Virus record (IMG/VR): IMGVR_UViG_2636415610_000011
Direction: 5' to 3' (one strand)
Length of the DNA: 10,389 bases
From: a virus
Taxonomy: Duplodnaviria > Heunggongvirae > Uroviricota > Caudoviricetes
The notes beneath the pieces are model-generated. The model saw only the letters and a list, made by a program, of their open reading frames with translations, did not search any database and was not told where the DNA came from. Position 1 is the stretch's first letter. Every line of letters starts with the position of its first letter. This document shows positions 1-10,389 of this stretch, piece after piece. Position numbers and translations under genes: made by a program.

Positions 1-1260
1 ATGCCAAAACTCACAGATATGCAGATCCGCGCATGGATAAAGGCGGGAGACAGATTTGATGGCAAGGCAGACGGCAACGGCCTTTATATTTGCTACCCCA
101 AAAACTACACAGTCCCGTTCTGGCGATTCCGCTATAAGCTCGCAGGAAAGCAGCGGGCTATGGTTATAGGCTCTTACTCCGAACTGTCACTATCAAAAGC
201 CAGAGAAACAGCAAAAGAGCTGTCAGCCAGAGTTGCTCTTGGCTATGACGTAGCAGCAGAGAAACAGGAACGAAAAGCTGAAGCACTGGCAAAAATGGAG
301 GCTGAGAAAAACGCCATGCGTGTTTCAGATCTGGCCTCCGAATACTTCGAGCGCCAGATACTTCCGAGATGGAAACATCCCGATATCCTTCGCCGGAGAA
401 TTGATAAGGATATTAACCCCTGCATTGGGCATATGAAGGTAGAGGACGTTAAGCCACGCCACATTGACGACATGTTGAAAGGTATCGTTGACCGAGGAGC
501 ACCAACGATAGCAACAGATGTATTACGCTGGACACGCCGTATCTTTGACTATGGGATAAAACGCCACGCTCTGGAGATAAACCCTTGTTCAGCGTTTGAA
601 GTATCTGATGCTGGTGGTAAAGAGGTTTCCCGCGACCGTTGGCTAACTCGCGATGAGCTTATCAGGCTATTCGAGGCTATGCGCACCGCAAAAGGATTCA
701 GCCGCCAGAACGAACTGACATTTAAGCTATTGCTGGCACTATGCGTTCGTAAGATGGAGTTATGCGCCGCACGATGGGAAGAGTTTGATTTAGATGGTGC
801 GGTATGGCATTTGCCGGAAGAACGCAGCAAAAACGGAGACCCTATTGATATACCTCTACCTTCCCCAGCCGTTGAATGGTTGAGAGAGCTACACACCTTT
901 TCATGTAATAGCGCATGGGTGCTTCCGGCCAGGAAGATGCAAAACAGAATGATCCCACATATTCAGGAAAGCACTTTACCCGTAGCACTGGCTAAGGTTC
1001 GCGCCGAAATGCCGGATGTGCCTAATTTCACGATTCACGACTTCCGACGCACCGCACGTACTCATTTAGCAGCGTTGGGTGTTGATCCTGTTGTGGCGGA
1101 ACGATGCCTCAATCATCGCATTAAGGGCGTAGAGGGGATTTATAACCGCCATCAGTATTTTGATGAGCGTAAAGCAGCACTGGCACAGTGGGCTGATCTG
1201 CTGGTGGCACTGGAAAGCGGAAAAGACTACAACGTAACGCCTCTCAGAAGGGCGAACTAA
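1..1260 (+). CDS. int: Tyrosine site-specific integrase, P4-type (N-terminal arm-binding domain of DUF4102 type plus C-terminal catalytic domain)
   Basis: 419-aa ORF. N-terminus LTDMQIRAWIKAGDRFDGKADGNGLYICYP...WRFRYKLAGKQRAMVIGSYSELSLSKARE matches the arm-binding domain pattern of P4-family integrases. C-terminus carries tyrosine-recombinase catalytic residues (HDFRRTARTHL ... LNHRIKGVEGIYNRHQY). ATG at window position 1, so promoter, attL and any tRNA target lie upstream outside the window. Confidence 0.93.
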   Translation: MPKLTDMQIRAWIKAGDRFDGKADGNGLYICYPKNYTVPFWRFRYKLAGKQRAMVIGSYSELSLSKARETAKELSARVALGYDVAAEKQERKAEALAKMEAEKNAMRVSDLASEYFERQILPRWKHPDILRRRIDKDINPCIGHMKVEDVKPRHIDDMLKGIVDRGAPTIATDVLRWTRRIFDYGIKRHALEINPCSAFEVSDAGGKEVSRDRWLTRDELIRLFEAMRTAKGFSRQNELTFKLLLALCVRKMELCAARWEEFDLDGAVWHLPEERSKNGDPIDIPLPSPAVEWLRELHTFSCNSAWVLPARKMQNRMIPHIQESTLPVALAKVRAEMPDVPNFTIHDFRRTARTHLAALGVDPVVAERCLNHRIKGVEGIYNRHQYFDERKAALAQWADLLVALESGKDYNVTPLRRAN

Positions 1261-1355
1261 CTGAATAGATTGAGCCTAGCTCGACGGGGCGAAAAGCGGG
1301 AAGCCTTACCGCCTGGCTCAATCACAAAATAAGGCGCAGCGTAAAAGGTGACGCA

Positions 1356-2321
1356 ATGAACGACTCTCATGAAACAACTGCGGTGCATAGAAATTTATGG
1401 CAGGAATCAGGTATTCCACCTTTGGACTACTGCACGATAGAGCGAGCATCAAAATTATTAAATTGTGAAATTGATGATATATGGCATTGGAAAGATAGAC
1501 TACATATAGACTTTTATGTCTATGCTGACTTTCTTGATTTCATTGAAGCTGATGCCGCCATCCACTTCAAAAAAGATGCTGATTTTATAACTGATTTATT
1601 ACTTATGTACCCAGAAGAAGTAAGGTTTACATTTCCTTTTCTTATTACCAGCGCAAGCAACGAAGTTTATATCCCAGCATCTGAAAGCGGTGCTTATGAG
1701 CTATTTTATGCACATAAACCACTGACAGTTGAAGACAGAGACAATAAAAATGTTTTTGAACAAATTGGCAAAAACTCTTTTATTGTAAGAAAATCAATTG
1801 CATGCGGATTGTTGCGTGTACGCGGTAGTACAACACGACATTATCATTCACAAGAATGTGGAGAGCCATATGTGCGACTTGAAGCAACATTTGATTGTGA
1901 TCTATATAAATTCAAAATGCAAAGTTCCCAGATTCACCTGAGTAGCCTGTCAGATAAAAACATTTATATAACAAAGGCTGATTTAGAATATCTTCACGAC
2001 GCAAAGGTTAATGGAAGTTTTGACGCAGCTAAGAGCAAAAAACGATACGAAATGGCGGTAGAACAGGAACTAATACCTGAAATAAAAAATAGCAACCATA
2101 ATGCCGAGAGACATGCTGAAAACAGGGAAAAACTTTTCAAATCAGCAATATATCTTTTGTCAAAGTATCCTGATGAATGCCGTGGCAAAAAGAAAGAAAT
2201 AAGCCCTGAGAAGTGGCGGGATTGCATAGTGGCTCATAAAGACGAAATTCCACCGTTAGCAATCACAAATGAAGATGTGATTTTGAGACACTTACGTGCT
2301 GCCGCCAACGGTAAGGGGTAG
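1356..2321 (+). CDS. Hypothetical protein, lower-GC orphan cargo gene in the int-alpA slot; function unknown
   Basis: 321-aa ORF with RBS AAGGTG (1345-1350) 5 nt before the ATG. GC is visibly lower than the flanking integrase and alpA (by-eye estimate, about 35-40% versus about 50%). Followed by a strong intrinsic terminator, so it is its own transcription unit. No catalytic motif recognised (no Walker A, HNH or obvious HTH). Confidence 0.75.
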   Translation: MNDSHETTAVHRNLWQESGIPPLDYCTIERASKLLNCEIDDIWHWKDRLHIDFYVYADFLDFIEADAAIHFKKDADFITDLLLMYPEEVRFTFPFLITSASNEVYIPASESGAYELFYAHKPLTVEDRDNKNVFEQIGKNSFIVRKSIACGLLRVRGSTTRHYHSQECGEPYVRLEATFDCDLYKFKMQSSQIHLSSLSDKNIYITKADLEYLHDAKVNGSFDAAKSKKRYEMAVEQELIPEIKNSNHNAERHAENREKLFKSAIYLLSKYPDECRGKKKEISPEKWRDCIVAHKDEIPPLAITNEDVILRHLRAAANGKG

Positions 2322-2336
2322 AGTAGCTAACTATTC

Positions 2337-2367
2337 AGGCACAGTATCATTACTGTGCCTTTTTATT
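2337..2367 (+). terminator. Rho-independent terminator after the orphan gene
   Basis: Perfect 9-bp stem AGGCACAGT (2337-2345) / ACTGTGCCT (2352-2360), 6-nt loop ATCATT, then T-tract TTTTATT (2361-2367); starts 16 nt after the stop codon. Confidence 0.7.
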
Positions 2368-2391
2368 GTTCATATATGTACAGATACTTCC

Positions 2392-2432
2392 TCCCGTAAC
2401 GAAGCAACAACTATCGCTAAGAGGTTACGGGA
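2392..2432. promoter_or_regulatory. Inverted repeat overlapping the alpA ribosome-binding site (putative operator or RBS-sequestering structure)
   Basis: TCCCGTAAC (2392-2400) and GTTACGGGA (2424-2432) are perfect reverse complements separated by 23 nt. The alpA RBS AAGAGG (2419-2424) sits at the loop-stem junction and the ATG is at 2436. Confidence 0.35.
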
Positions 2433-2435
2433 AGC

Positions 2436-2639
2436 ATGAACACCGACACTATTCCTACAAAAGGCTATATCAGACGCTTCCGCCTGGCTGAATTGCTGGG
2501 CGTTAGTGTATCCACCATCGACCGTAAAGTAAGAAACGGTTCACTACCACGTCCGGTAAAGCTGGGAGAAAAAATAACTGCGTTTGATGCGGTTGAGATT
2601 CACAACTGGCTGGCAGAACGCCGCGGGAAGGTGGCCTGA
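2436..2639 (+). CDS. alpA: AlpA/Vis-family small HTH transcriptional regulator / excisionase-like protein
   Basis: 67-aa ORF; IRRFRLAELLGVSVSTIDRKVRNGSLPRPVKLGEKITAFDAVEIHNWL is the characteristic AlpA (prophage CP4-57 regulator) / P4 Vis-like MerR-type HTH. Position downstream of a P4-type integrase is typical. Stop overlaps the next start (TGATG). Confidence 0.85.
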   Translation: MNTDTIPTKGYIRRFRLAELLGVSVSTIDRKVRNGSLPRPVKLGEKITAFDAVEIHNWLAERRGKVA

Positions 2640-3070
2640 TGGAAAAGAAAAACCGCCCATTACAGGCGGCTAATTCAGATATTCGCGTATCTGATGTTAC
2701 GCCCCTTACAAAATCCCTTCAAGAACCAAAGCGCACACCGAAAAAGCATCGTGCCAGAGTCTATATGCTGCGTACTGGTATAGAGGGATGGACAGAAAAT
2801 GACATTCTTCGCTACTGCCGTCTGTCTTCTGGTCGTAACTATGCAACAGAGTTAGAACGCCAGCTTGGAATCACTCTGGAGCGTATCGACGAAAAGAATC
2901 CTGATGGTATCGGAACACACCTTCGCTACCGTTTCTCCTGCCGTGGTGATGTTCTGAAAGTGATCACTCATGTTAACCATCTTGCGAACATAAATGATCA
3001 CAACGGACTTTCTCAGCAGGAAATTGCCGACATTCTGAAACTCTACCCGAACGCGTTTAACGCCGCCTAA
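2639..3070 (+). CDS. Hypothetical protein (143 aa), translationally coupled to alpA
   Basis: ATG 2639 overlaps the alpA stop; RBS GGAAGGTGG upstream. Basic N-terminus (KRTPKKHRAR). No family recognised. Confidence 0.7.
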   Translation: MEKKNRPLQAANSDIRVSDVTPLTKSLQEPKRTPKKHRARVYMLRTGIEGWTENDILRYCRLSSGRNYATELERQLGITLERIDEKNPDGIGTHLRYRFSCRGDVLKVITHVNHLANINDHNGLSQQEIADILKLYPNAFNAA

Positions 3071-3082
3071 CGGAGACTGAAA

Positions 3083-3916
3083 ATGAACATCGAAAAAAGC
3101 AGATTAATTTCTGAGGCCGCCCCTCATCTGAACGCCTCTCTGGGCACAATTAACGGTAATGAATTTGCCGCAATTGTCCCGGTTATTCCTGGTCATATCG
3201 GTGGGCGTGAAACCAATATTGTTAGCGCAAAAGCGTTACACAAAGCGTTGGGCGTGGGAAAAGACTTCTCTACATGGATCACTGATCGCATCTCTGAATA
3301 TGACTTCACCATTGGGCACGATTACTCAGTCCATAAAACAATTTCCCCAAATTTGGGGAAAAGCCCGAATGGCACGGCTTACAGCAAGATTAAGCACTCT
3401 GGCAGACCCGGCAAAGACTATCTGTTAAGTGTCGGAATGGCGAAAGAACTGGCAATGATCGAACGCAATGATCAGGGGCGCGCTATCCGCCGTTATTTCA
3501 TCCAGTGCGAGGAAGAATTACAGCGTAGCGTGCCTGAAATCGCCGCCCGCTATCGTCGCCAGCTAAAAGCCCGTATCAGTGCCGCAAACAACTTTAAGCC
3601 AATGTGCGATGCGCTGAATATGGCCCGTGCCGAGATGGGGAAAACGACGCAGCAACACCACTACACAAACGAGAGCAATATGATTTCTCGTATCGTTCTT
3701 GGTGGGCTAACTGCTAAGCAGTGGGCGCGGATAAATGGCTATTCTGGCGAACCTCGCGACCATATGAACGCAGAACAGCTTGAGCACCTCTCATATCTCG
3801 AAAGCACCAATATCACGTTAATTGATATGGGCATGGAATATGAGCAGCGCAAAGGAGAACTCACCCGCCTGTCGCAACGCTGGCTCGCTAAGCGTCTGGA
3901 GGCGGTCCATGTTTAA
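3083..3916 (+). CDS. Phage antirepressor-like protein (AntA/Rha/Bro-N-type N-terminal domain)
   Basis: 277-aa ORF with RBS GGAG (3072-3075). N-terminal region NIVSAKALHKALGVGKDFSTWITDRISEYDF...GRPGKDYLLSVGMAKELAMIERNDQGRAIRRYFIQCEEEL matches the conserved AntA/Rha-type antirepressor DNA-binding domain. C-terminal half not recognised. Confidence 0.8.
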   Translation: MNIEKSRLISEAAPHLNASLGTINGNEFAAIVPVIPGHIGGRETNIVSAKALHKALGVGKDFSTWITDRISEYDFTIGHDYSVHKTISPNLGKSPNGTAYSKIKHSGRPGKDYLLSVGMAKELAMIERNDQGRAIRRYFIQCEEELQRSVPEIAARYRRQLKARISAANNFKPMCDALNMARAEMGKTTQQHHYTNESNMISRIVLGGLTAKQWARINGYSGEPRDHMNAEQLEHLSYLESTNITLIDMGMEYEQRKGELTRLSQRWLAKRLEAVHV

Positions 3917-4091
3917 GCCGACAGGAACACCACAACCTCAAAAACGCTACAAAGATGCCCACGGAGCACTCGTTACTGTCGAAAGCGTGTCTCACAACCG
4001 AGTGACGTTTTATCGCGACGGGTATCAATCGCCATGCGTACAACCGCTGGCACGTTTCATGAAGGAGTTCGCGGAGGTTAACAAATGCTAA
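3909..4091 (+). CDS. Small hypothetical protein (60 aa), possibly DUF4222-like
   Basis: RBS GGAGG (3898-3902) 6 nt before ATG 3909; start overlaps the upstream stop by 8 nt (translational coupling). The ORF track's longer 3822 start lies inside the upstream gene and is rejected. Pattern YKDAHGALVTV...RVTFYRDGYQSPCVQPLARFMKEF resembles small DUF4222-type prophage proteins, from memory only. Confidence 0.6.
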   Translation: MFKPTGTPQPQKRYKDAHGALVTVESVSHNRVTFYRDGYQSPCVQPLARFMKEFAEVNKC

Positions 4092-5152
4092 CCGCCCAGA
4101 AGAAGACATTTTCACTGGCTGGTATGTCGCCAAAATCCAGCAATATGACAGCAAAGTCAGGCATTAATACAGCAGATACAAGCAAAGTTTATCATTTGCT
4201 GGTGGTAGGAGCGGATGCCTTAACTATGTCAGAAATTACGGTCGATGGTGTTAGCGTTGAGAAGGTCAGCGGCTGCGCCAGAGAATTTCTGGTCGTAGAT
4301 GGCTTTCTCTGCTCGCGTAGTGACTCCACAAAAACCTTCGTCCACGCGCGTGACGTTAACGAAATGAGCGCGATGTACTGTGCTTCTGGTTCTTCCAATA
4401 GTGAGTTTTCGGAGTCCATAAAAAAGAGCTTGCCGTTATGCGGCAACACGGTTTATGGTTATAAGGCACCTCATAAAACGGGTGCCGGGATTGGCGTCCT
4501 GGTAAATCGAATGGCGACATATGACGCGCCGAGCGTCTTTTTTTATGTCGTAGGTCTGACTCACCCATTTTTTGGGCGTTGGTGTATAATCCAGCGCCTT
4601 TGTCAATCAATGGTGGCTCAGGCAGGGGCTTCTTCGGAAGCGCCGGTATCCATTCGAGCCGGTTACGCCAACCCTGTCTGGGCTACCACCAGCGAAATTG
4701 GCGTTTCCGGTGGTAGCGTTACATGCTATCGAATGGAGGCTGCCACATGCTGGCTACTACCCCTACCCAAAAACCGCAATTTATCTGGATTATCGCCGCA
4801 GTTCGCCGCGATTGCCCGACAATTACCGCCAAAATTCATCATATTGCTGCCGAGTCTGAACGCGATGCTCGCCGTTCTCTGGTGCGCGATCACGTCTGCT
4901 TTTTTGCTGGTCGTATCCGCATGGAGGTGGCACATGATTAAAACCTACGATGTGCATATGGATCCCCTCGAACGCACAAGCCAGATCATCACACTGACAG
5001 AAGTGATTAACGACATTCTGGTGAGCAACTCTCCCTCACGAGACGAAAGACTGAAGGCGTTACTCGCGATATTGGATCTCGCCGTTCGTGACGTTCATTT
5101 CCTGCTGGAAGGTGGCGAAATGCCAGTAAAAACGGGGGAAACCAATGAATAA
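4085..5152 (+). CDS. Stop-free 355-codon frame; probably a composite: a roughly 222-aa gene (4085 to about 4753) that has lost its stop and reads through in frame into the 4934-5152 gene
   Basis: RBS GGAGG (4071-4075) and ATG 4085 coupled to the upstream stop (ATGCTAA). Codon usage read by eye looks coding from 4085 to about 4745 (G-rich first positions, few rare codons). The same frame over 4745-4933 is full of rare codons (CTA x3, TTA x3, GGA, CGA, ATA, AGG) while the -1 frame there has none. An automated gene caller would probably report the whole ORF as one hypothetical protein. Confidence 0.4.
4747..4941 (+). CDS. Small hypothetical protein (64 aa) in the -1 frame relative to the 4085 ORF
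   Basis: RBS GGAGG (4735-4739) 7 nt before ATG 4747. All codons are common enteric codons (CTG, CGC, CGT, ATC, CCG, GCC; no rare codons). Stop TAA (4939-4941) overlaps the next ATG (4934) in the same 8-nt coupling arrangement used elsewhere in this operon. Alternative start ATG 4723. Confidence 0.5.
   Translation: MLATTPTQKPQFIWIIAAVRRDCPTITAKIHHIAAESERDARRSLVRDHVCFFAGRIRMEVAHD
4934..5152 (+). CDS. Small hypothetical protein (72 aa)
   Basis: RBS GGAGGTGG (4923-4930) just upstream of ATG 4934; coupled to the upstream stop and to the downstream start (ATG 5145 / TAA 5150-5152). In frame with, and contained in, the 4085-5152 ORF. Confidence 0.45.
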   Translation: MIKTYDVHMDPLERTSQIITLTEVINDILVSNSPSRDERLKALLAILDLAVRDVHFLLEGGEMPVKTGETNE

Positions 5153-5339
5153 CTCAATTAATACCCCTCGCCTTACGTCCGCACTTCAATTAATCGAGCA
5201 AGCAGCGGCTGTCCTGGTTGCTGTCAGTCTTTCGGCTGAAGAAATGGACGCTACTGATGTCGTGGATGCGATTAAAGCGTGCTCATCTTTGGTTAACGAT
5301 GCCCGTGCAGAGCTGGTAATTCTTGGGGGTGAAAAATGA
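5145..5339 (+). CDS. Small hypothetical protein (64 aa)
   Basis: ATG 5145 overlaps the upstream stop by 8 nt; G-rich RBS GGGGGA (5134-5139). Ala/Leu-rich, helical-looking sequence. Confidence 0.65.
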   Translation: MNNSINTPRLTSALQLIEQAAAVLVAVSLSAEEMDATDVVDAIKACSSLVNDARAELVILGGEK

Positions 5340-5599
5340 ATATCAACTTAATTTATCGTCATCCGTGTGGGCTGGAAATTGAATCATTGCTGAGCCGTGA
5401 AGAGCCATATCCAGACACATTCACTCTTGCAGATCGCACGACTGAACGGCTTACCAGAGCGCGCACAGGTCTGGTTCATGTGATGAATGAGATTCTTCCA
5501 TCGGTGGGAGGGGAACAGGCGACAGTAATCACTAGCTGGCTACAAAAAGTTACCTCTCTGATAGATATCAGTTTAATCGATGCGGAGAGTGCGAAATGA
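5336..5599 (+). CDS. Small hypothetical protein (87 aa)
   Basis: ATGA start/stop overlap with the upstream gene (5336-5339); RBS GGGGGTG (5323-5329). Confidence 0.7.
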   Translation: MNINLIYRHPCGLEIESLLSREEPYPDTFTLADRTTERLTRARTGLVHVMNEILPSVGGEQATVITSWLQKVTSLIDISLIDAESAK

Positions 5600-5817
5600 C
5601 CAACATCCAGCTCATTGAAGCGCAATGTCGCATCGAACAGGTTCAGACTGTTTTAGGGTTCTGGCTTGAAGGGGCCAGCCCCAGCAACAGAGACAAGTTA
5701 ATGATTGGCGCGGTTATGTCACTGCTCAATGGCGTACCAGAAGCTATTCAGGAAGCAGACGAATTGTTGGGCAAATATGAGTTACAGAATCATTCAGGCG
5801 AGGCGAAACATGAATAA
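5596..5817 (+). CDS. Small hypothetical protein (73 aa)
   Basis: ATGA overlap with the upstream gene (5596-5599); RBS GGAGAG (5584-5589). Confidence 0.7.
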   Translation: MTNIQLIEAQCRIEQVQTVLGFWLEGASPSNRDKLMIGAVMSLLNGVPEAIQEADELLGKYELQNHSGEAKHE

Positions 5818-6412
5818 TTTCTTAACTTTCCATGCAGAAGCAACGCCTGACGGCGTAAACATCATGCACCGCAGCAACGATGGCATGACAGAACGCGTTG
5901 AGACCGTCTCATATATTGATGCCGTAAATCGTCTGGATGCCGGGGATTATGACGATAAACCAGATGAAGGCATGTCAATACATCTCGCTATAGCCGATGG
6001 CGGCAACCAGGGATATTTCGATTACACATCACAGCATAACGTCATTATGTGGAGATGGCTGATCGCAACAGTATTCATGCTGGAAATGAGAGAGGAAAAC
6101 GGCACTGTCAGCATCATTGATGATACTGGCAATCCTTCCGAAGTGGCTGTTTATTCCAACGGCATCGTCGCCATGCCGCTGTATCCAGTAGCAGAGCGCC
6201 TCGCTATGGCAAACAACATTGAGGGCGCGATGATAGAACGTTTTGGCATCGAGTCTGGCACAGAACGCGCCATCATTTTCTACAGAGCCATGATGGATGT
6301 GGAACAAGGAGCACTGACTCCATTTGGTCGTGAAACGCTTGCTGAACTTCACAACAGCTTTATAGCTGAACTGAATGAAAACGGCATGCCAGCGGAACCA
6401 GTGACGCACTGA
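5810..6412 (+). CDS. Hypothetical acidic protein (200 aa)
   Basis: ATG 5810 overlaps the upstream stop (ATGAATAA, stop at 5815-5817); RBS AGGCGAGG upstream. The ORF-track start at 5705 lies deep inside the previous gene in another frame and is rejected. Confidence 0.75.
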   Translation: MNNFLTFHAEATPDGVNIMHRSNDGMTERVETVSYIDAVNRLDAGDYDDKPDEGMSIHLAIADGGNQGYFDYTSQHNVIMWRWLIATVFMLEMREENGTVSIIDDTGNPSEVAVYSNGIVAMPLYPVAERLAMANNIEGAMIERFGIESGTERAIIFYRAMMDVEQGALTPFGRETLAELHNSFIAELNENGMPAEPVTH

Positions 6413-6422
6413 GGATGGAGCC

Positions 6423-6764
6423 ATGATTACTAAAAATTTCCGACTGAATGCGCTGGCAAATAAGTATGCGTCGGCACTGTATAACCACATTACCTCCACC
6501 AGCGGCGGGGACTATTTCATGGTTGATGCGGACGGCGAGGCCGTACGTGTGGAAATCGTCAATGGAGTAAAAGACGTTCGCAGCCTGATCGATAGCTACA
6601 CACTGGCAGCCATGAAAGTGTTCTACCCGCAGTGGGAAACCGTGGGGATCGAGCTTCTTGAGCGTTGCGTCACTAAGGACGGATTGACTGACGTCGGGCG
6701 TGAGATATGGCAAAGCATGGTTAATGACATGGGCGCAACTGTAGCGGGAGGTTCTCATGCGTGA
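6423..6764 (+). CDS. Hypothetical protein (113 aa)
   Basis: RBS GGATGGAG (6414-6421) immediately before ATG 6423, which lies 10 nt after the upstream stop. Confidence 0.75.
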   Translation: MITKNFRLNALANKYASALYNHITSTSGGDYFMVDADGEAVRVEIVNGVKDVRSLIDSYTLAAMKVFYPQWETVGIELLERCVTKDGLTDVGREIWQSMVNDMGATVAGGSHA

Positions 6765-7128
6765 AAATGCAGAAATGGCGCTTAGCTCCGCAATCGGAGA
6801 GCAGGTGGCAAAGATTGCTGGTGCTGTGTGGATTCATAACCTTCATTCTACTGGTGAAGAGAAAATGGCAATTCAGACGCCAGAGGGACGCACCATTACT
6901 ACATCTCTGAAGCCGTCAGATGTTTGTGATCTGATTTGCGCATTCATGTACCCAGCAATGAGGACTGTCCACAGCGATAAGTGGAAACTTGCGACAACCG
7001 CTGAATTTGATATGTGGCTAAACAATGATGGCATGCTGACTGATTACGGAATAACCAAGTGGCAGATGCTGGTTAGCCATATCGCAAACGCTATAGACCA
7101 CGTGGGGTACGGTGATGCGAAACATTGA
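6757..7128 (+). CDS. Hypothetical protein (123 aa), immediately upstream of and coupled to the primase-helicase
   Basis: ATG 6757 overlaps the upstream stop by 8 nt; its own stop (7126-7128) overlaps the primase start. Confidence 0.75.
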   Translation: MRENAEMALSSAIGEQVAKIAGAVWIHNLHSTGEEKMAIQTPEGRTITTSLKPSDVCDLICAFMYPAMRTVHSDKWKLATTAEFDMWLNNDGMLTDYGITKWQMLVSHIANAIDHVGYGDAKH

Positions 7129-9871
7129 TCTTATCCGTCAGGTTATCAGTGCGTCTGAAAACAACTGGCCTCATGTGCTGGGCTGCCTGAACATAAATGT
7201 CCCTGACTCTCCGCGCCGTCATGCTCCCTGCCCTGCATGTGGGGGCAAAGATCGATTCCGGTTCGATGACAACGGGCGCGGTAGCTTCATCTGTAATCAG
7301 TGCGGCGCTGGTGATGGGCTGGATTTAATTAAACGCGTAAATAACTGCGACACAACAGAGGCGGCGCTTCTTGCCGCTGATGTTCTGGGTATTGATTACC
7401 GGACAACGGAAACACCAGAAGCCACCAGCCAGAAACGGGAACAACTGGAAACCGAGCGCCAGCGACGCGAACAGGAGCGCCTGAAAAGGGCAGAGAAGGA
7501 CGAACAACAAAGACGGGATACGTTTTCCCGTCAGTTTGATGACATGCGCAGAAAGGCTGTAAACGGCAAATCTGATTATCTGGTTGCGAAAGGGGTAGGT
7601 GATTTTACATTCCCCGTGTTGCCCGATGGATCTCTGTTGCTGGCGCTGGTGGATAAATCCGGCGCAGTCACAGCAGCACAGACTATTACCTCACATGGTG
7701 AAAAAAGACTCCTGAGAGGTTCAGCAAAGCGGGGGGCATATCACGCCATAAACGCGCCAGAAACAACACAGAGCATCTTAATTACAGAAGGGCTGGCAAC
7801 GGCATTATCTGCCCATTTAATTCGTCCAGAGGCGCTGACAGTGGCGGCGATTGATGCCGGGAACCTGTTATATGTCGCCCAGGTACTGCGGGATAAATTT
7901 CCTTCAGCACAAATCATCATTGCTGCGGATAACGACCACAGCGAAGGAAGACAAAACACGGGGAGAATAGCAGCAGAAAAAGCAGCTTTATCTGTTTCTG
8001 GATGGGTGGCATTACCCCCGACAGATCACAAAGCAGACTGGAATGATTACCACCAAAAACACGGCATTAAATGCGCCACAGAAGCGTTCAATAAGTCAAT
8101 GTACCAACCACAGGGTAATGGCGTGAAACAGGAGCCACAGACCATTGAGGGAAGCGATTTTAAGGTTATGGATACCGACCCACTGAAACCAAGAATAGAA
8201 AGCCGCGAGGATGGTATTTATTGGGTATCTCCGAGAGCTGACAGCCAGAGTGGAGAAATCATCAATAACGAAAGCTGGTTATGTTCTCCGTTAAGCGTTA
8301 TCGGTACTGGCAGAGACGATAAAGACCAGTATCTCATTCTTCGCTGGCTGTCGTTTGGTTCTGAAACGCCGACAACCGCTGCCATTCCACTGGCTGATAT
8401 TGGTGAACGTGAAGGATGGCGCACACTTAAAGCTGGTGGGGTAAATGTCACGACCAAAAGCAGCCTCAGAGCAATACTGGCAGACTGGCTACAACGCAGT
8501 GGCTCTCGTGAATTGTGGCGTGTTGCTCATGCCACTGGCTGGCAATGCGGAGCGTACATCATGCCTGATGGGGAAATCATCGGAACACCTGAAAATCCTG
8601 TGCTGTTCAGCGGGAGAAGCTCAGCCGCAGCCGGATATACCGTCTCAGGGAGCGCGAAAAGCTGGCGTGATAACGTGGCGCGTCTGGCCTTTGGTAACTA
8701 TTCAATGATGACCGGGATCGGCGCAGCACTGGCAGCGCCATTGATTGGGCTGGTGGGCGCTGACGGGTTCGGCATTCATTTCTATGAGCAGTCGAGCGCA
8801 GGTAAGACCACCACGGCAAACGTGGCGAGCAGCTTATACGGCAACCCTGATTTACTGCGGCTGACGTGGTACGGAACCGCGCTGGGGCTGGCAAATGAGG
8901 CCGCCGCCCACAATGACGGACTAATGCCGCTTGATGAAGTTGGTCAGGGCGCTGATCCTGTCAGCGTTTCACAGTCTGCCTATGCGTTATTTAACGGTGT
9001 AGGGAAACTGCAAGGCGCTAAAGATGGTGGAAACCGGGATCTAAAACGCTGGCGTACAGTGGCAATCAGCACCGGAGAAATGGATTTAGAAACATTTATC
9101 GCTACTTCCGGGCGAAAAACCAAAGCCGGGCAACTGGTGCGACTGCTGAATATTCCGTTGAGTAAAGCAGTACGCTTTCACGATTACCAGAACGGAAAAC
9201 AGCACGCAGACGCACTGAAAGACGCTTACCAGCATCACCACGGCGCGTCCGGGCGTGAGTGGATTAAATGGCTGGCAGACCACCAGCAACAGGCTATTAA
9301 AACCGTTCGTGACTGCGAAAGCAGATGGAGAAGCCTGATCCCATCCGATTATGGTGAGCAGGTTCACCGTGTAGCCGCGCGATTTGCCATTCTGGAGGCC
9401 GCATTGTTGTTAGGCGAGGTTGTAACAGGCTGGGATGCTCAGACATGCCGTGATGCGATACAGCACAGCTATAACGCATGGTTGCGCGAGTTCGGCACAG
9501 GTAACAAAGAGCATCAGCAGATTATTGAACAAACGGAGGCATTTCTTAATGCCTATGGGCTTAGCCGTTTTGCACCATTTCCATACAGCCCGGCAGATTT
9601 GCCCATCAAAGATTTAGCCGGATACCGTCAGCGTGGAGAACATGACGAAAGCCCAATGATTTTCTACACATTCCCGGCCACATTTGAAAAGGAGATCGCA
9701 TGTGGTTTCAACGCAAAACAGTTTGCTGAAGTGTTGAAAAAAGCCGGGATGCTAACCCCACCAAACAGCGGTCGTGGATACCAAAGAAAATCACCACGTA
9801 TTCAGGGACGACAAATAAACGTTTATGTACTCAATTACCAGCCAGGAGATTATAACTCATCTGAAGAATGA
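7115..9871 (+). CDS. Primase-helicase of the phage P4 alpha type (N-terminal Zn-ribbon, Toprim primase core, C-terminal P-loop NTPase/helicase-like domain)
   Basis: About 918 aa. Zn-ribbon CPACGGKDRFRFDD...GSFICNQCG; Toprim signatures ITEGLATAL (conserved Glu) and IIIAADNDHSEG (DxD); Walker-A-like FYEQSSAGKTTTA in the C-terminal domain. ATG 7115 preferred; GTG 7112 (ORF-track start) is an alternative. Confidence 0.93.
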   Translation: MRNIDLIRQVISASENNWPHVLGCLNINVPDSPRRHAPCPACGGKDRFRFDDNGRGSFICNQCGAGDGLDLIKRVNNCDTTEAALLAADVLGIDYRTTETPEATSQKREQLETERQRREQERLKRAEKDEQQRRDTFSRQFDDMRRKAVNGKSDYLVAKGVGDFTFPVLPDGSLLLALVDKSGAVTAAQTITSHGEKRLLRGSAKRGAYHAINAPETTQSILITEGLATALSAHLIRPEALTVAAIDAGNLLYVAQVLRDKFPSAQIIIAADNDHSEGRQNTGRIAAEKAALSVSGWVALPPTDHKADWNDYHQKHGIKCATEAFNKSMYQPQGNGVKQEPQTIEGSDFKVMDTDPLKPRIESREDGIYWVSPRADSQSGEIINNESWLCSPLSVIGTGRDDKDQYLILRWLSFGSETPTTAAIPLADIGEREGWRTLKAGGVNVTTKSSLRAILADWLQRSGSRELWRVAHATGWQCGAYIMPDGEIIGTPENPVLFSGRSSAAAGYTVSGSAKSWRDNVARLAFGNYSMMTGIGAALAAPLIGLVGADGFGIHFYEQSSAGKTTTANVASSLYGNPDLLRLTWYGTALGLANEAAAHNDGLMPLDEVGQGADPVSVSQSAYALFNGVGKLQGAKDGGNRDLKRWRTVAISTGEMDLETFIATSGRKTKAGQLVRLLNIPLSKAVRFHDYQNGKQHADALKDAYQHHHGASGREWIKWLADHQQQAIKTVRDCESRWRSLIPSDYGEQVHRVAARFAILEAALLLGEVVTGWDAQTCRDAIQHSYNAWLREFGTGNKEHQQIIEQTEAFLNAYGLSRFAPFPYSPADLPIKDLAGYRQRGEHDESPMIFYTFPATFEKEIACGFNAKQFAEVLKKAGMLTPPNSGRGYQRKSPRIQGRQINVYVLNYQPGDYNSSEE

Positions 9872-9896
9872 GCTTCTTCATGTGCGTAGAAAAGGT

Positions 9897-10007
9897 GTTG
9901 GTTCAGTTGGTTCAGTTGGTTCAATTTGTAAAGAGTATTGTTTTATAAGGATTTTATTCTTTTTATTGAACCAACACTGAACCAACAACACGGTATTTTG
10001 AACCAAC
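9897..10007. repeat. Iteron array: putative replication origin of the island
   Basis: Three perfect tandem GTTGGTTCA (9897-9905, 9906-9914, 9915-9923), then a 43-bp strongly AT-rich tract (9924-9966), then three inverted copies TGAACCAAC (9967-9975, 9978-9986, 9999-10007) spaced 11 and 21 bp (helical phasing). Lies 26 bp downstream of the primase-helicase stop. Confidence 0.6.
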
Positions 10008-10098
10008 ACAATGTGACTGAATTGATGCGCACAACACCTGGCTGGCATCAGAGAGTGTTTTACGAGACTTTCGTAAAATCCTGTGTACAAGGGCGTGA

Positions 10099-10389
10099 TG
10101 AACCGCCCCGGGTTTCCTGGAGAGTGTTTTATCTGTGAACTCAGGCTGCCAGATCATCGTTTCCGATGGAAGCATAATAAGCTTTTTCTGCTTCTGCCGG
10201 TGGGATATGGCCCAGCCTTTCCAGCAATCGTCGATTGTTATACCAGTCCACCCACGTGAGTGTGGCCAGCTCCACTTCTGTCCGGTTTTTCCAGCTCTTA
10301 CGGTGTATTACCTCCGCTTTGTAAAGGCCATTGATGCTCTCCGCCATCGCGTTGTCATACGAGTCACCAGTACTTCCTGTTGATGCCAG
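10099..10389 (-). mobile_element. IS3-family insertion sequence terminus (IS629/IS1203-like), partial, continues beyond the window
   Basis: Terminal sequence TGAACCGCCCCGGG... begins at 10099 (5'-TG end typical of IS3 family) and precedes the 3' end of an rve-type transposase on the - strand. Assignment to IS629 is from memory of its terminal sequence, not a search. Confidence 0.8.
10141..10389 (-). CDS. IS3-family transposase (OrfB, DDE/rve integrase core), C-terminal fragment; 5' end outside window
   Basis: Reverse-strand translation ...LASTGSTGDSYDNAMAESINGLYKAEVIHRKSWKNRTEVELATLTWVDWYNNRRLLERLGHIPPAEAEKAYY... contains the conserved rve C-terminal motif (DSYDNAMAES). Stop at 10141-10143; the frame is open to the window edge. 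Confidence 0.85.
   Translation of the reverse strand: MASTGSTGDSYDNAMAESINGLYKAEVIHRKSWKNRTEVELATLTWVDWYNNRRLLERLGHIPPAEAEKAYYASIGNDDLAA

Follow-up and report, generated by a model that had tools for sequence, protein, structure and literature searches.

A yicC-integrated mosaic island, very probably of the EcCIMP1 type, with a C4-type antisense immunity region and an interrupting insertion sequence

To which class of mobile elements does an integrase-bearing island belong when its integration, regulation and replication genes are in view and the remainder is cut off by an insertion sequence (IS)? The question is raised by IMGVR_UViG_2636415610_000011, a record assigned to Caudoviricetes, and the whole stretch of 10,389 nucleotides is called the window here. 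An initial annotation made from the sequence alone had taken it for the replication and regulation half of a phage-inducible chromosomal island (PICI), and comparison with EcCIMP1, a proven PICI, bears this assignment out. We consider it very probable that a mosaic PICI of the EcCIMP1 type has its left 10.1 kb in the window and is governed by the scheme of repression, induction, replication and transfer proposed below.

EcCIMP1 is the PICI of Escherichia coli MP1, with a length of 19,963 bp and located at tRNA-Thr (Pick, Stadel & Raivio, ISME J 2025; PMC11773190). Its circles form only when the P22-like prophage vB_EcoP_Kapi1 (Kapi1) is present, and its excision, which is precise, requires its own int and the int-proximal alpA (PMC11773190). 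The region was initially called an incomplete prophage, and by the authors' scoring EcCIMP1 is a "Type C" incomplete PICI whose phylogeny stands apart from the classical Gram-negative PICIs; int, alpA and perC were found to vary among EcCIMP1-like elements (PMC11773190). Window positions 2629-10098 match EcCIMP1 with 97.7% nucleotide identity over 7.49 kb, and the orf143, AntA and primase proteins are 97-99% identical to their EcCIMP1 counterparts. Positions 1-2628 have no nucleotide-level match in EcCIMP1, and the window integrase is only 29% and AlpA only 36% identical to the EcCIMP1 proteins. The integrase is 92% and 87% identical to integrases adjoining yicC in E. coli and Salmonella satellites, respectively, and AlpA is 95.5% identical to that of another yicC-type satellite; the yicC-integrated satellite that shares these 92% (Int) and 95.5% (AlpA) carries a different, P4-alpha-type replication module. 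The match to EcCIMP1 over 2629-10098, together with the match of Int and AlpA to the other yicC satellite, thus indicates that the window is a mosaic, joined at the alpA/orf143 boundary. Its parts outside the immunity region are the following, ORF denoting an open reading frame.

1-1260, + strand: int, P4-family tyrosine integrase (Pfam Arm-DNA-bind_3, Phage_int_M, Phage_integrase)
1269-1335, + strand: int-alpA RNA motif (Rfam RF02996, 60.6 bits, gathering score 35.8)
1356-2321, + strand: ORF for a 321-aa protein in the int-alpA slot, in a stretch with 35-40% GC
2337-2360, + strand: terminator-like hairpin (intrinsic) after the 321-aa gene, a 10-bp stem followed by a T-run
2436-2639, + strand: alpA, Vis/excisionase-type regulator (Pfam Phage_AlpA, E 2e-8)
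2639-3070, + strand: orf143, first gene of the EcCIMP1-type core (97% identity to the EcCIMP1 orthologue)
3083-3916, + strand: AntA/Bro-type antirepressor (Pfam AntA, E 2e-21; PHROG anti-repressor, E 2e-37)
3909-4091, + strand: DUF4222 small protein (Pfam DUF4222, E 2e-24)
4085-5152, + strand: ORF annotated as "ash family", overlapping isrK, C4 and icd
5145-5339, 5336-5599, 5596-5817, 5810-6412, 6423-6764 and 6757-7128, + strand: six small genes, closely packed or overlapping by their stop and start codons
7112-9871, + strand: primase-helicase of 919 aa (Pfam zinc-ribbon, Toprim_3, DUF927)
9897-10007, no strand assigned: iteron origin, three copies of GTTGGTTCA (9897-9923), an AT-rich spacer and three inverted copies, TGAACCAAC (9967-10007)
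10099-10389, − strand: end of a multicopy IS3-family element, starting TGAACCGCCCCGGG, with the rve_3/rve_2 transposase C-terminus at 10141-10347

All substantial ORFs of the window lie on the + strand, and the genes named in the initial annotation are indeed present, co-directional and in the order and places it gave them; the three Rfam RNAs (int-alpA RNA, isrK and C4) and the icd-like gene had escaped it. Two PICI traits are found in the window, namely int at one end followed by alpA in the same (+) direction, and a primase/replicase gene of its own adjoining an origin. EcCIMP1 shares with the window orf143, antA, the DUF4222 gene, the ash/isrK/C4 segment, icd, the six small ORFs, the primase-helicase and the iteron origin. 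It differs in its site (tRNA-Thr, against the yicC 3′ end for the window element), in having neither the 321-aa gene between int and alpA nor the IS after the origin, and in its variable cassette, which is also unlike that of the window element's relatives.

The attachment site was established by comparing the empty site of K-12, attL and attR of E. coli strain cq9, and the attP junction of two separately assembled relatives, which places a 21-bp core, CAGATTCAGAAYATCGAATAA, in the last seven codons of yicC; the integrated element supplies a replacement 3′ end for this gene. To judge from these comparisons the window integrase is specific for the yicC 3′ end, and the expectation of a tRNA or tmRNA site in the initial annotation has to be given up; a search of the window for tRNA genes returned none. 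A 24-nt TGTACA-rich repeat had been tried as the core and was rejected, because the K-12 site alignment placed the core at the yicC stop region; a composite empty-site query built from the repeat matched no genome over its full length, and a role as integrase arm sites is more likely for the TGTACA repeats. The island part, 1-10098, has 3 mismatches in 10,098 bases to the cq9 chromosome. At least 80% of the window is present in 96 of 5,426 complete E. coli genomes, in every case between yicC and dinD, and the right junction at the yicC site is present in 296 genomes. The left end, attL, precedes window position 1 by about 190 bp, and in intact near-identical copies attL and attR are about 19 kb apart; strain W4 (NZ_CP163132) has the complete gene set between yicC and dinD. 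Two free records are known as well, the linear "phage_14408_2" of 19,226 bp (NZ_LT599831.1, L002), which contains attP, and a circular 12,152-bp record labelled a plasmid (NZ_CP148430.1, L003), which also has attP and has lost most of the ejection genes described below. The two attP records suggest excised, replicating forms in the source cultures. Outside the island, about 3 kb upstream of it, cq9 carries a "reverse transcriptase family protein" gene between slmA and pyrE (8142-9101 of the cq9 locus, L001), which K-12 does not have there and which may be a retron-type insertion.

The content of the part beyond the IS can be read from the complete relatives. The IS portion of 291 bases is found at 25,485 places in E. 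coli genomes, with 100% matches at many unrelated loci, and every island match ends at 10098. The IS, which sits 91 bp past the iteron origin, either separates the right half or has deleted it; the window's copy may therefore be immobile. A simple insertion would leave island sequence continuing with GACGTTTTTGAAAGTGAGCAC on the far side. Another EcCIMP1-like element has lost most of its ejection genes through an IS3-family insertion at roughly the same place. The right half common to cq9, W4, EcCIMP1 and the free 19-kb record comprises a 53-aa ORF, the ejection genes, a variable cassette, perC and attR. By PHROG families of the intact copies, the ejection genes are homologues of P22 gp14 (DUF2824, head morphogenesis), gp7 (DNA ejection), gp20 and gp16, some of them pseudogenes, and part of this module is 81% identical to Kapi1 at the nucleotide level; the cassette holds ImmA/IrrE-type or Abi-type genes. 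EcCIMP1 resembles the intact copies in the 53-aa ORF, the gp14/7/20/16-like genes, perC and a second iteron cluster. The initial annotation had correctly located the remaining half beyond 10099, but the terS/ppi-like or sid/psu-like genes it expected there are replaced by ejection genes, cassette, perC and iterons. Beyond the IS site none of terS, ppi, rpp, sid, delta or psu occurs in the intact relatives, a packaging-redirection or capsid-remodelling module (terS, ppi, rpp, cpm-type) is absent from the window and the complete relatives alike, and the slot after the primase is filled in the latter by the gp14/7/20/16 homologues. Library scans of the window returned no phage structural, terminase or lysis genes, and the intact relatives, apart from the four genes for virion ejection proteins, are likewise devoid of capsid, portal, terminase, tail and lysis genes. 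A missing attR, or membership of a full-size prophage or a plasmid, had been named beforehand as speaking against a satellite; the intact copies carry attL and attR at their ends and are neither a full prophage nor an ordinary plasmid.

The element could nevertheless be imagined as a helper-independent, integrative, plasmid-like unit that spreads mainly vertically or by some other route, since it has its own primase-helicase and iteron origin, one relative is the 12,152-bp circular "plasmid", transduction of EcCIMP1 is very rare, and a Kapi1-like prophage was found in only 2 of 21 EcCIMP1 carriers (PMC11773190). We regard this as improbable, because library scans of the window proteins returned no relaxase, oriT-associated or partition family, EcCIMP1 circles form only with the helper (PMC11773190), and the retention of helper-like ejection genes would make little sense without packaging into virions.

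The satellite of the EcCIMP1 type that we favor instead carries, between the DUF4222 gene and the small genes, a region that has the marks of an antisense immunity system. All of its features lie on the + strand.

4404-4425, + strand: conserved 22-nt box AGTTTTCGGAGTCCATAAAAAA, 41-62 nt 5′ of the isrK start
4430-4435 and 4454-4459, + strand: promoter-like hexamers TTGCCG and TATGGT, a putative promoter read from the sequence
4466-4543, + strand: isrK, a seqA-type leader RNA (Rfam isrK, 67.1 bits, gathering score 50)
4491-4497 and 4507-4514, + strand: isrK targets a1 and b1, complements of C4 a′ and b′
4523-4537, + strand: intrinsic terminator at the end of isrK
4606-4693, + strand: C4/P4-CI-type antisense RNA (Rfam C4, 79.5 bits, gathering score 45)
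4650-4657 and 4665-4671, + strand: C4 recognition elements b′ and a′, located in the loop of the second hairpin and the unpaired stretch next to it
4698-4704 and 4729-4736, + strand: downstream targets a2 and b2, exact complements of a′ and b′
4747-4941, + strand: icd-like gene, probably the first under C4 control (NCBIfam phage_ICD_like, 71.7 bits, cut-off 25)

The fold of the C4 RNA has two hairpins enclosed by a long outer stem, and the b2 target runs into the GGAGG Shine-Dalgarno sequence (4735-4739) of the icd-like gene. Compared with the immunity region of P4, the C4 region has nucleotide identities of 71% (162 nt) and 92% (38 nt), and the icd-like product is 43% identical to the matching part of the immunity-region ORF. 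A P4-type CI immunity with seqA and seqC targets is thus a trait present in the window, and the architecture, as read from the sequence, is that of P1/P7 C4 and P4 CI immunity. When 19 further loci from other enterobacterial genera were fetched by means of the Icd-like protein, C4 was directly followed by icd in all 19, and isrK exceeded the Rfam gathering score in 18, the exception being locus L026.

The pairing of the elements was examined in a covariation alignment of 24 elements from more than 10 genera, with slid partners and 500 shuffles as controls. The a and b elements occur in many different sequences among the 24, and all three copies change together. For a1b1 with a′b′, 96.9% of the cells are paired (49% in the best slid control) with compensatory changes in 13 of 15 pairs, and for a′b′ with a2b2, 94.4% are paired (best slid control 46%), again with 13 of 15 pairs compensatory; none of the 500 shuffles reached the observed covariation in either case. 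The antisense pairing of the a and b elements is therefore strongly supported by comparison. By analogy with P1, P4 and Gifsy-1 we infer that the pairing would terminate transcription, or block translation, of the operon that extends from icd to the primase. Within an otherwise conserved core the immunity segment varies most, which fits a diversification of immunity specificity; the window allele has a′ ACGCCAA and b′ CCATTCGA, while EcCIMP1 has a′ CTGCGAA and b′ CCTTGTAC. The text of the EcCIMP1 paper makes no mention of IsrK, antisense, small RNA (sRNA) or Icd (PMC11773190).

Upstream of isrK, the 14-nt core of the box AGTTTTCGGAGTCCATAAAAAA stands at the same distance from isrK in 9 of the 19 distant loci, and GAGTCCATAAAAAA is found 54 nt 5′ of isrK in the window and in nine of the 19, loci whose surroundings are otherwise unrelated. 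Five elements have a further copy of the conserved box between the origin and the ejection-gene operon (22280-22301 in cq9), so that it may be a common activator site for early and late promoters. In cq9, beyond the IS site, a strong intrinsic terminator, GCCACCAGCTACTGAGCGGTGGCATTTTTTT, follows immediately on this second box (L001 22302-22360) and could define a further short RNA upstream of the ejection-gene operon. A scan with the sigma-70 consensus gave five promoter-like sites, compared with 13.3 in shuffles, and recovered no proposed promoter. Between isrK and C4 (4568-4606) the sequence TATAAT at 4585-4590 is a candidate for a separate C4 promoter. A 39-42-nt stretch that includes this TATAAT is deleted in several relatives, hence C4 is probably also, or mainly, derived from processed isrK read-through transcripts.

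The replication module extends the likeness to P4 in one half only. Identity to P4 alpha amounts to 32% (E 2e-41) over residues 8-362 of the primase-helicase; no match to P4 alpha extends into the helicase half, and the C-terminal half is a DUF927 domain with a weak NCBIfam match to the Cch helicase of staphylococcal cassette chromosomes (SCC). By its domains the protein is a P4-alpha-type primase fused to a DUF927 (Cch/SaPI-Rep-type) helicase, and the designation "alpha-like" in the initial annotation suits the primase half and not the helicase half. It is 99.3% identical to its EcCIMP1 counterpart. The iteron origin proposed at the same time is real, with six copies of GTTGGTTCA against 0.12 expected and none of 200 shuffles reaching six. 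A second cluster, again 3 + 3 copies of GTTGGTTCA with an AT-rich spacer, lies 8.1 kb downstream in intact copies (30039-30159 in cq9), where it adjoins perC as a mirror image of the window origin.

How close, then, is the element to P4 itself (NC_001609)? The two share the integrase family (25% identity, E 2e-20), a Vis/AlpA homologue (35% identity to ORF88/Vis), a CI-type antisense RNA with upstream and downstream targets, an icd/kil-like ORF, an alpha-type primase domain, and two iteron clusters, the annotated ori/crr pair of P4 resembling the paired clusters of the intact relatives. These likenesses are what might be expected of a P4-like satellite of a P2-like helper whose sid-delta-psu module has been lost or is out of view. 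However, a tblastn search in both directions combined with Pfam found no homologue of sid, delta, psu, epsilon, gop, beta or cII in the window, the complete cq9 copy or EcCIMP1, in agreement with the initial finding that sid, delta and psu are missing before the IS. There is no similarity to P4 cos, the helicase domain is of another kind (DUF927) than in P4 alpha, the genes of the window element are co-directional with int, and the right half of intact copies, which holds their helper-related genes, is of P22 type and unrelated to P2, the nearly identical EcCIMP1 being mobilised by a P22-like podovirus. Because the defining late genes and cos are absent, this explanation is largely refuted and we give it a very slight chance. 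On the other hand, the early judgement that the island is of PICI type "rather than P4 itself" holds for the PICI but puts the distance too strongly, given the P4 CI/P1 C4-type repression and the primase. A remnant of a decayed P22-like prophage, fused to an unrelated island with an integrase, which the four P22-type virion genes of intact copies, the pseudogenes among them and the former description of EcCIMP1 as an incomplete prophage might suggest, is hardly credible in view of a 19-kb unit of the same gene order at two sites (yicC and tRNA-Thr) with precise att repeats, free attP forms, the lack of capsid, portal, terminase, tail and lysis genes in any relative, and the precise excision and transduction of EcCIMP1 (PMC11773190).

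Other known systems share single parts. P1 uses a1b1 and a2b2 as C4 targets. The immI region of P1/P7 (c4-icd-ant) is like the window in the C4 fold, a1b1 upstream, a2b2 downstream, and a target at the icd ribosome-binding site. The motifs of the Rfam families C4 and c4-a1b1 are listed in Weinberg et al., 2010 (PMC2864571). The isrK-orf45-anrP region of Gifsy-1 likewise has an isrK leader with a terminator and an open frame through the C4-like part, orf45, and IsrK has been described there as a structural homologue of P4 seqA (PMC4825925). Unlike in P1/P7 and Gifsy-1, the controlled operon of the window is one for replication (icd, small ORFs, primase), as in P4, and not for an antirepressor; the AntA antirepressor of the window is situated upstream, in the alpA operon. 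The PICIs EcCICFT073 and EcCIEDL933 resemble the window element in the one-direction arrangement of int, alpA, primase and origin, the size of 10-20 kb, the absence of capsid and lysis genes, and a PerC-like accessory gene (present in the intact copies of the window element), but have the rpp, ppi, terS and capsid-morphogenesis module that it does not possess.

For the EcCIMP1-type PICI we propose the following scheme. The module of int, the 321-aa gene and alpA would direct integration into the last seven codons of yicC. In the repressed state, as sequence and covariation suggest, transcription from a promoter just upstream of isrK would mostly stop at the isrK terminator; C4 RNA contained in read-through transcripts would pair through its a′/b′ loops with a2/b2, cover the ribosome-binding site of the icd-like gene and silence the operon of icd, the six small genes and the primase-helicase, and the a1/b1 copies in isrK would compete for the same loops. 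Induction is modelled on EcCIMP1, whose genetics provide the master-regulator role of AlpA (PMC11773190), and is assumed for the window element, such that lytic growth of a P22-like helper would switch on alpA, and AlpA and Int would excise the element. The primase-helicase would then presumably copy the circle from the iteron origin. Transfer is modelled on the intact relatives only, in which the right half would contribute the P22-type gp14/7/20/16, a defence-like cassette and PerC, and the element would exit in helper capsids.

Several observations weigh against the reading given here. The helper dependence of the window element is known only through EcCIMP1, which itself was transduced only with its helper Kapi1 and at a very low rate (PMC11773190), and since Int and AlpA are so little alike in the two elements, the inducing signal and the helper of the window element could differ. 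A nucleotide comparison of Kapi1 with the window gave no similarity; no packaging signal or packaging gene was recognized in any relative, with no match to P4 cos (joined P4 ends) and no significant match to the terS/pac region of Kapi1 (14-mers only, E 0.03-0.06). The antisense mechanism is proposed from covariation. Both ends of the window's copy fall outside the window, and none of the 5,426 complete genomes searched has the exact junction of island and IS. Finally, attR of cq9 is without 11 bp (ACATCGAATAA; L001 30993-31002) of the 21-bp core, and this copy may be unable to excise; the attR junction query of 166 nt is matched in full by many other genomes, W4, PK12 and 04-00955 among them.

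A bolder possibility, which we put forward only tentatively and think rather unlikely to hold in full, is that EcCIMP1-type elements, including the yicC variant, form a distinct family. They would exploit P22-like podoviruses through their own gp14/7/20/16 rather than through capsid remodelling or terminase redirection, be silenced by a C4-IsrK switch diversified into many specificities, and use the int-proximal winged-helix protein as a helper sensor or an anti-phage factor.

This int-proximal protein, of 321 aa, has a winged-helix N-terminus, a hypervariable middle and a conserved C-terminal part of about 75 residues. Its 48 homologues are all unnamed, every organism-named source is one of the Enterobacterales, and they have in common the N-terminal ~45 and the C-terminal ~75 residues around a hypervariable middle. 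Two homologues that were examined, from satellites of E. coli and Salmonella with replication modules unlike that of the window, occupy the same slot, with an integrase of the yicC type on one side and alpA on the other. Searches with PADLOC, Pfam, PHROGs and NCBIfam gave nothing credible, the best match being PADLOC PDC-S31 (E 0.002). It had been taken for cargo; a gene is indeed present between int and alpA, but a passive role is doubtful, since the winged-helix N-terminus points to a possible regulator and the slot is shared by several yicC-type satellites. The protein may regulate by binding DNA or may act in defence, which we offer as a lead, and the hairpin that follows it would putatively insulate the gene from alpA. 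The interval from int to alpA (1242-2448) appears as a replaceable slot, occupied by a different, 216-aa gene in relatives whose int DNA is 98.6-98.7% identical and by no gene in EcCIMP1. The int-alpA RNA motif, which stands 5′ of the 321-aa gene in the window, is also found 3′ of int in 12 of the 19 related loci.

Among the core genes that follow alpA, orf143 gave no match in family library searches. The window AntA is 97.5% identical to that of EcCIMP1 and has no similarity to either of the two Kapi1 antirepressors, and the DUF4222 protein has one identical accession in EcCIMP1 and strain cq9. The six small genes at 5145-7128, which lead into the primase gene and recur as the same set in EcCIMP1, match only PHROG families of unknown function.

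The "ash family" frame presents a problem of its own. Its Pfam Phage_ASH match (aa 124-232) corresponds to nt 4454-4780, the part of the window that holds the RNA genes isrK and C4 and the beginning of icd, and substitutions in the ORF show no codon-phase bias. The frame is open through isrK and C4 in 23 of the 24 elements, and the spacing from isrK to C4 (140, 128, 125, 101 or 98 nt) is always 2 modulo 3. Our first judgement, that the ORF is a spurious translation of RNA genes, was withdrawn after these mixed later tests; Ash may be a protein, an artefact of the RNA genes, or both.

As for what the element means, this kind of satellite was already described in 2025, and the window is a new mosaic member of it with another attachment site and another AlpA, interrupted by an IS. 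Several features appear to be undescribed for the EcCIMP1 family, namely the multi-allele C4/IsrK switch, the paired iteron clusters and the conserved protein of the int-alpA slot, details by which current understanding is not overturned. A common but poorly annotated E. coli island is hereby assigned to a satellite family that has experimental support; the window version is found in about 2% of complete genomes and an element end at yicC in about 5%, and standard satellite classifiers score such elements as incomplete. Integration/AlpA modules and regulation/replication modules are exchanged as blocks among these satellites. The ejection proteins that they encode are a likely point of contact with P22-like helpers, and an antisense-RNA switch with many specificities would explain how related satellites can coexist.

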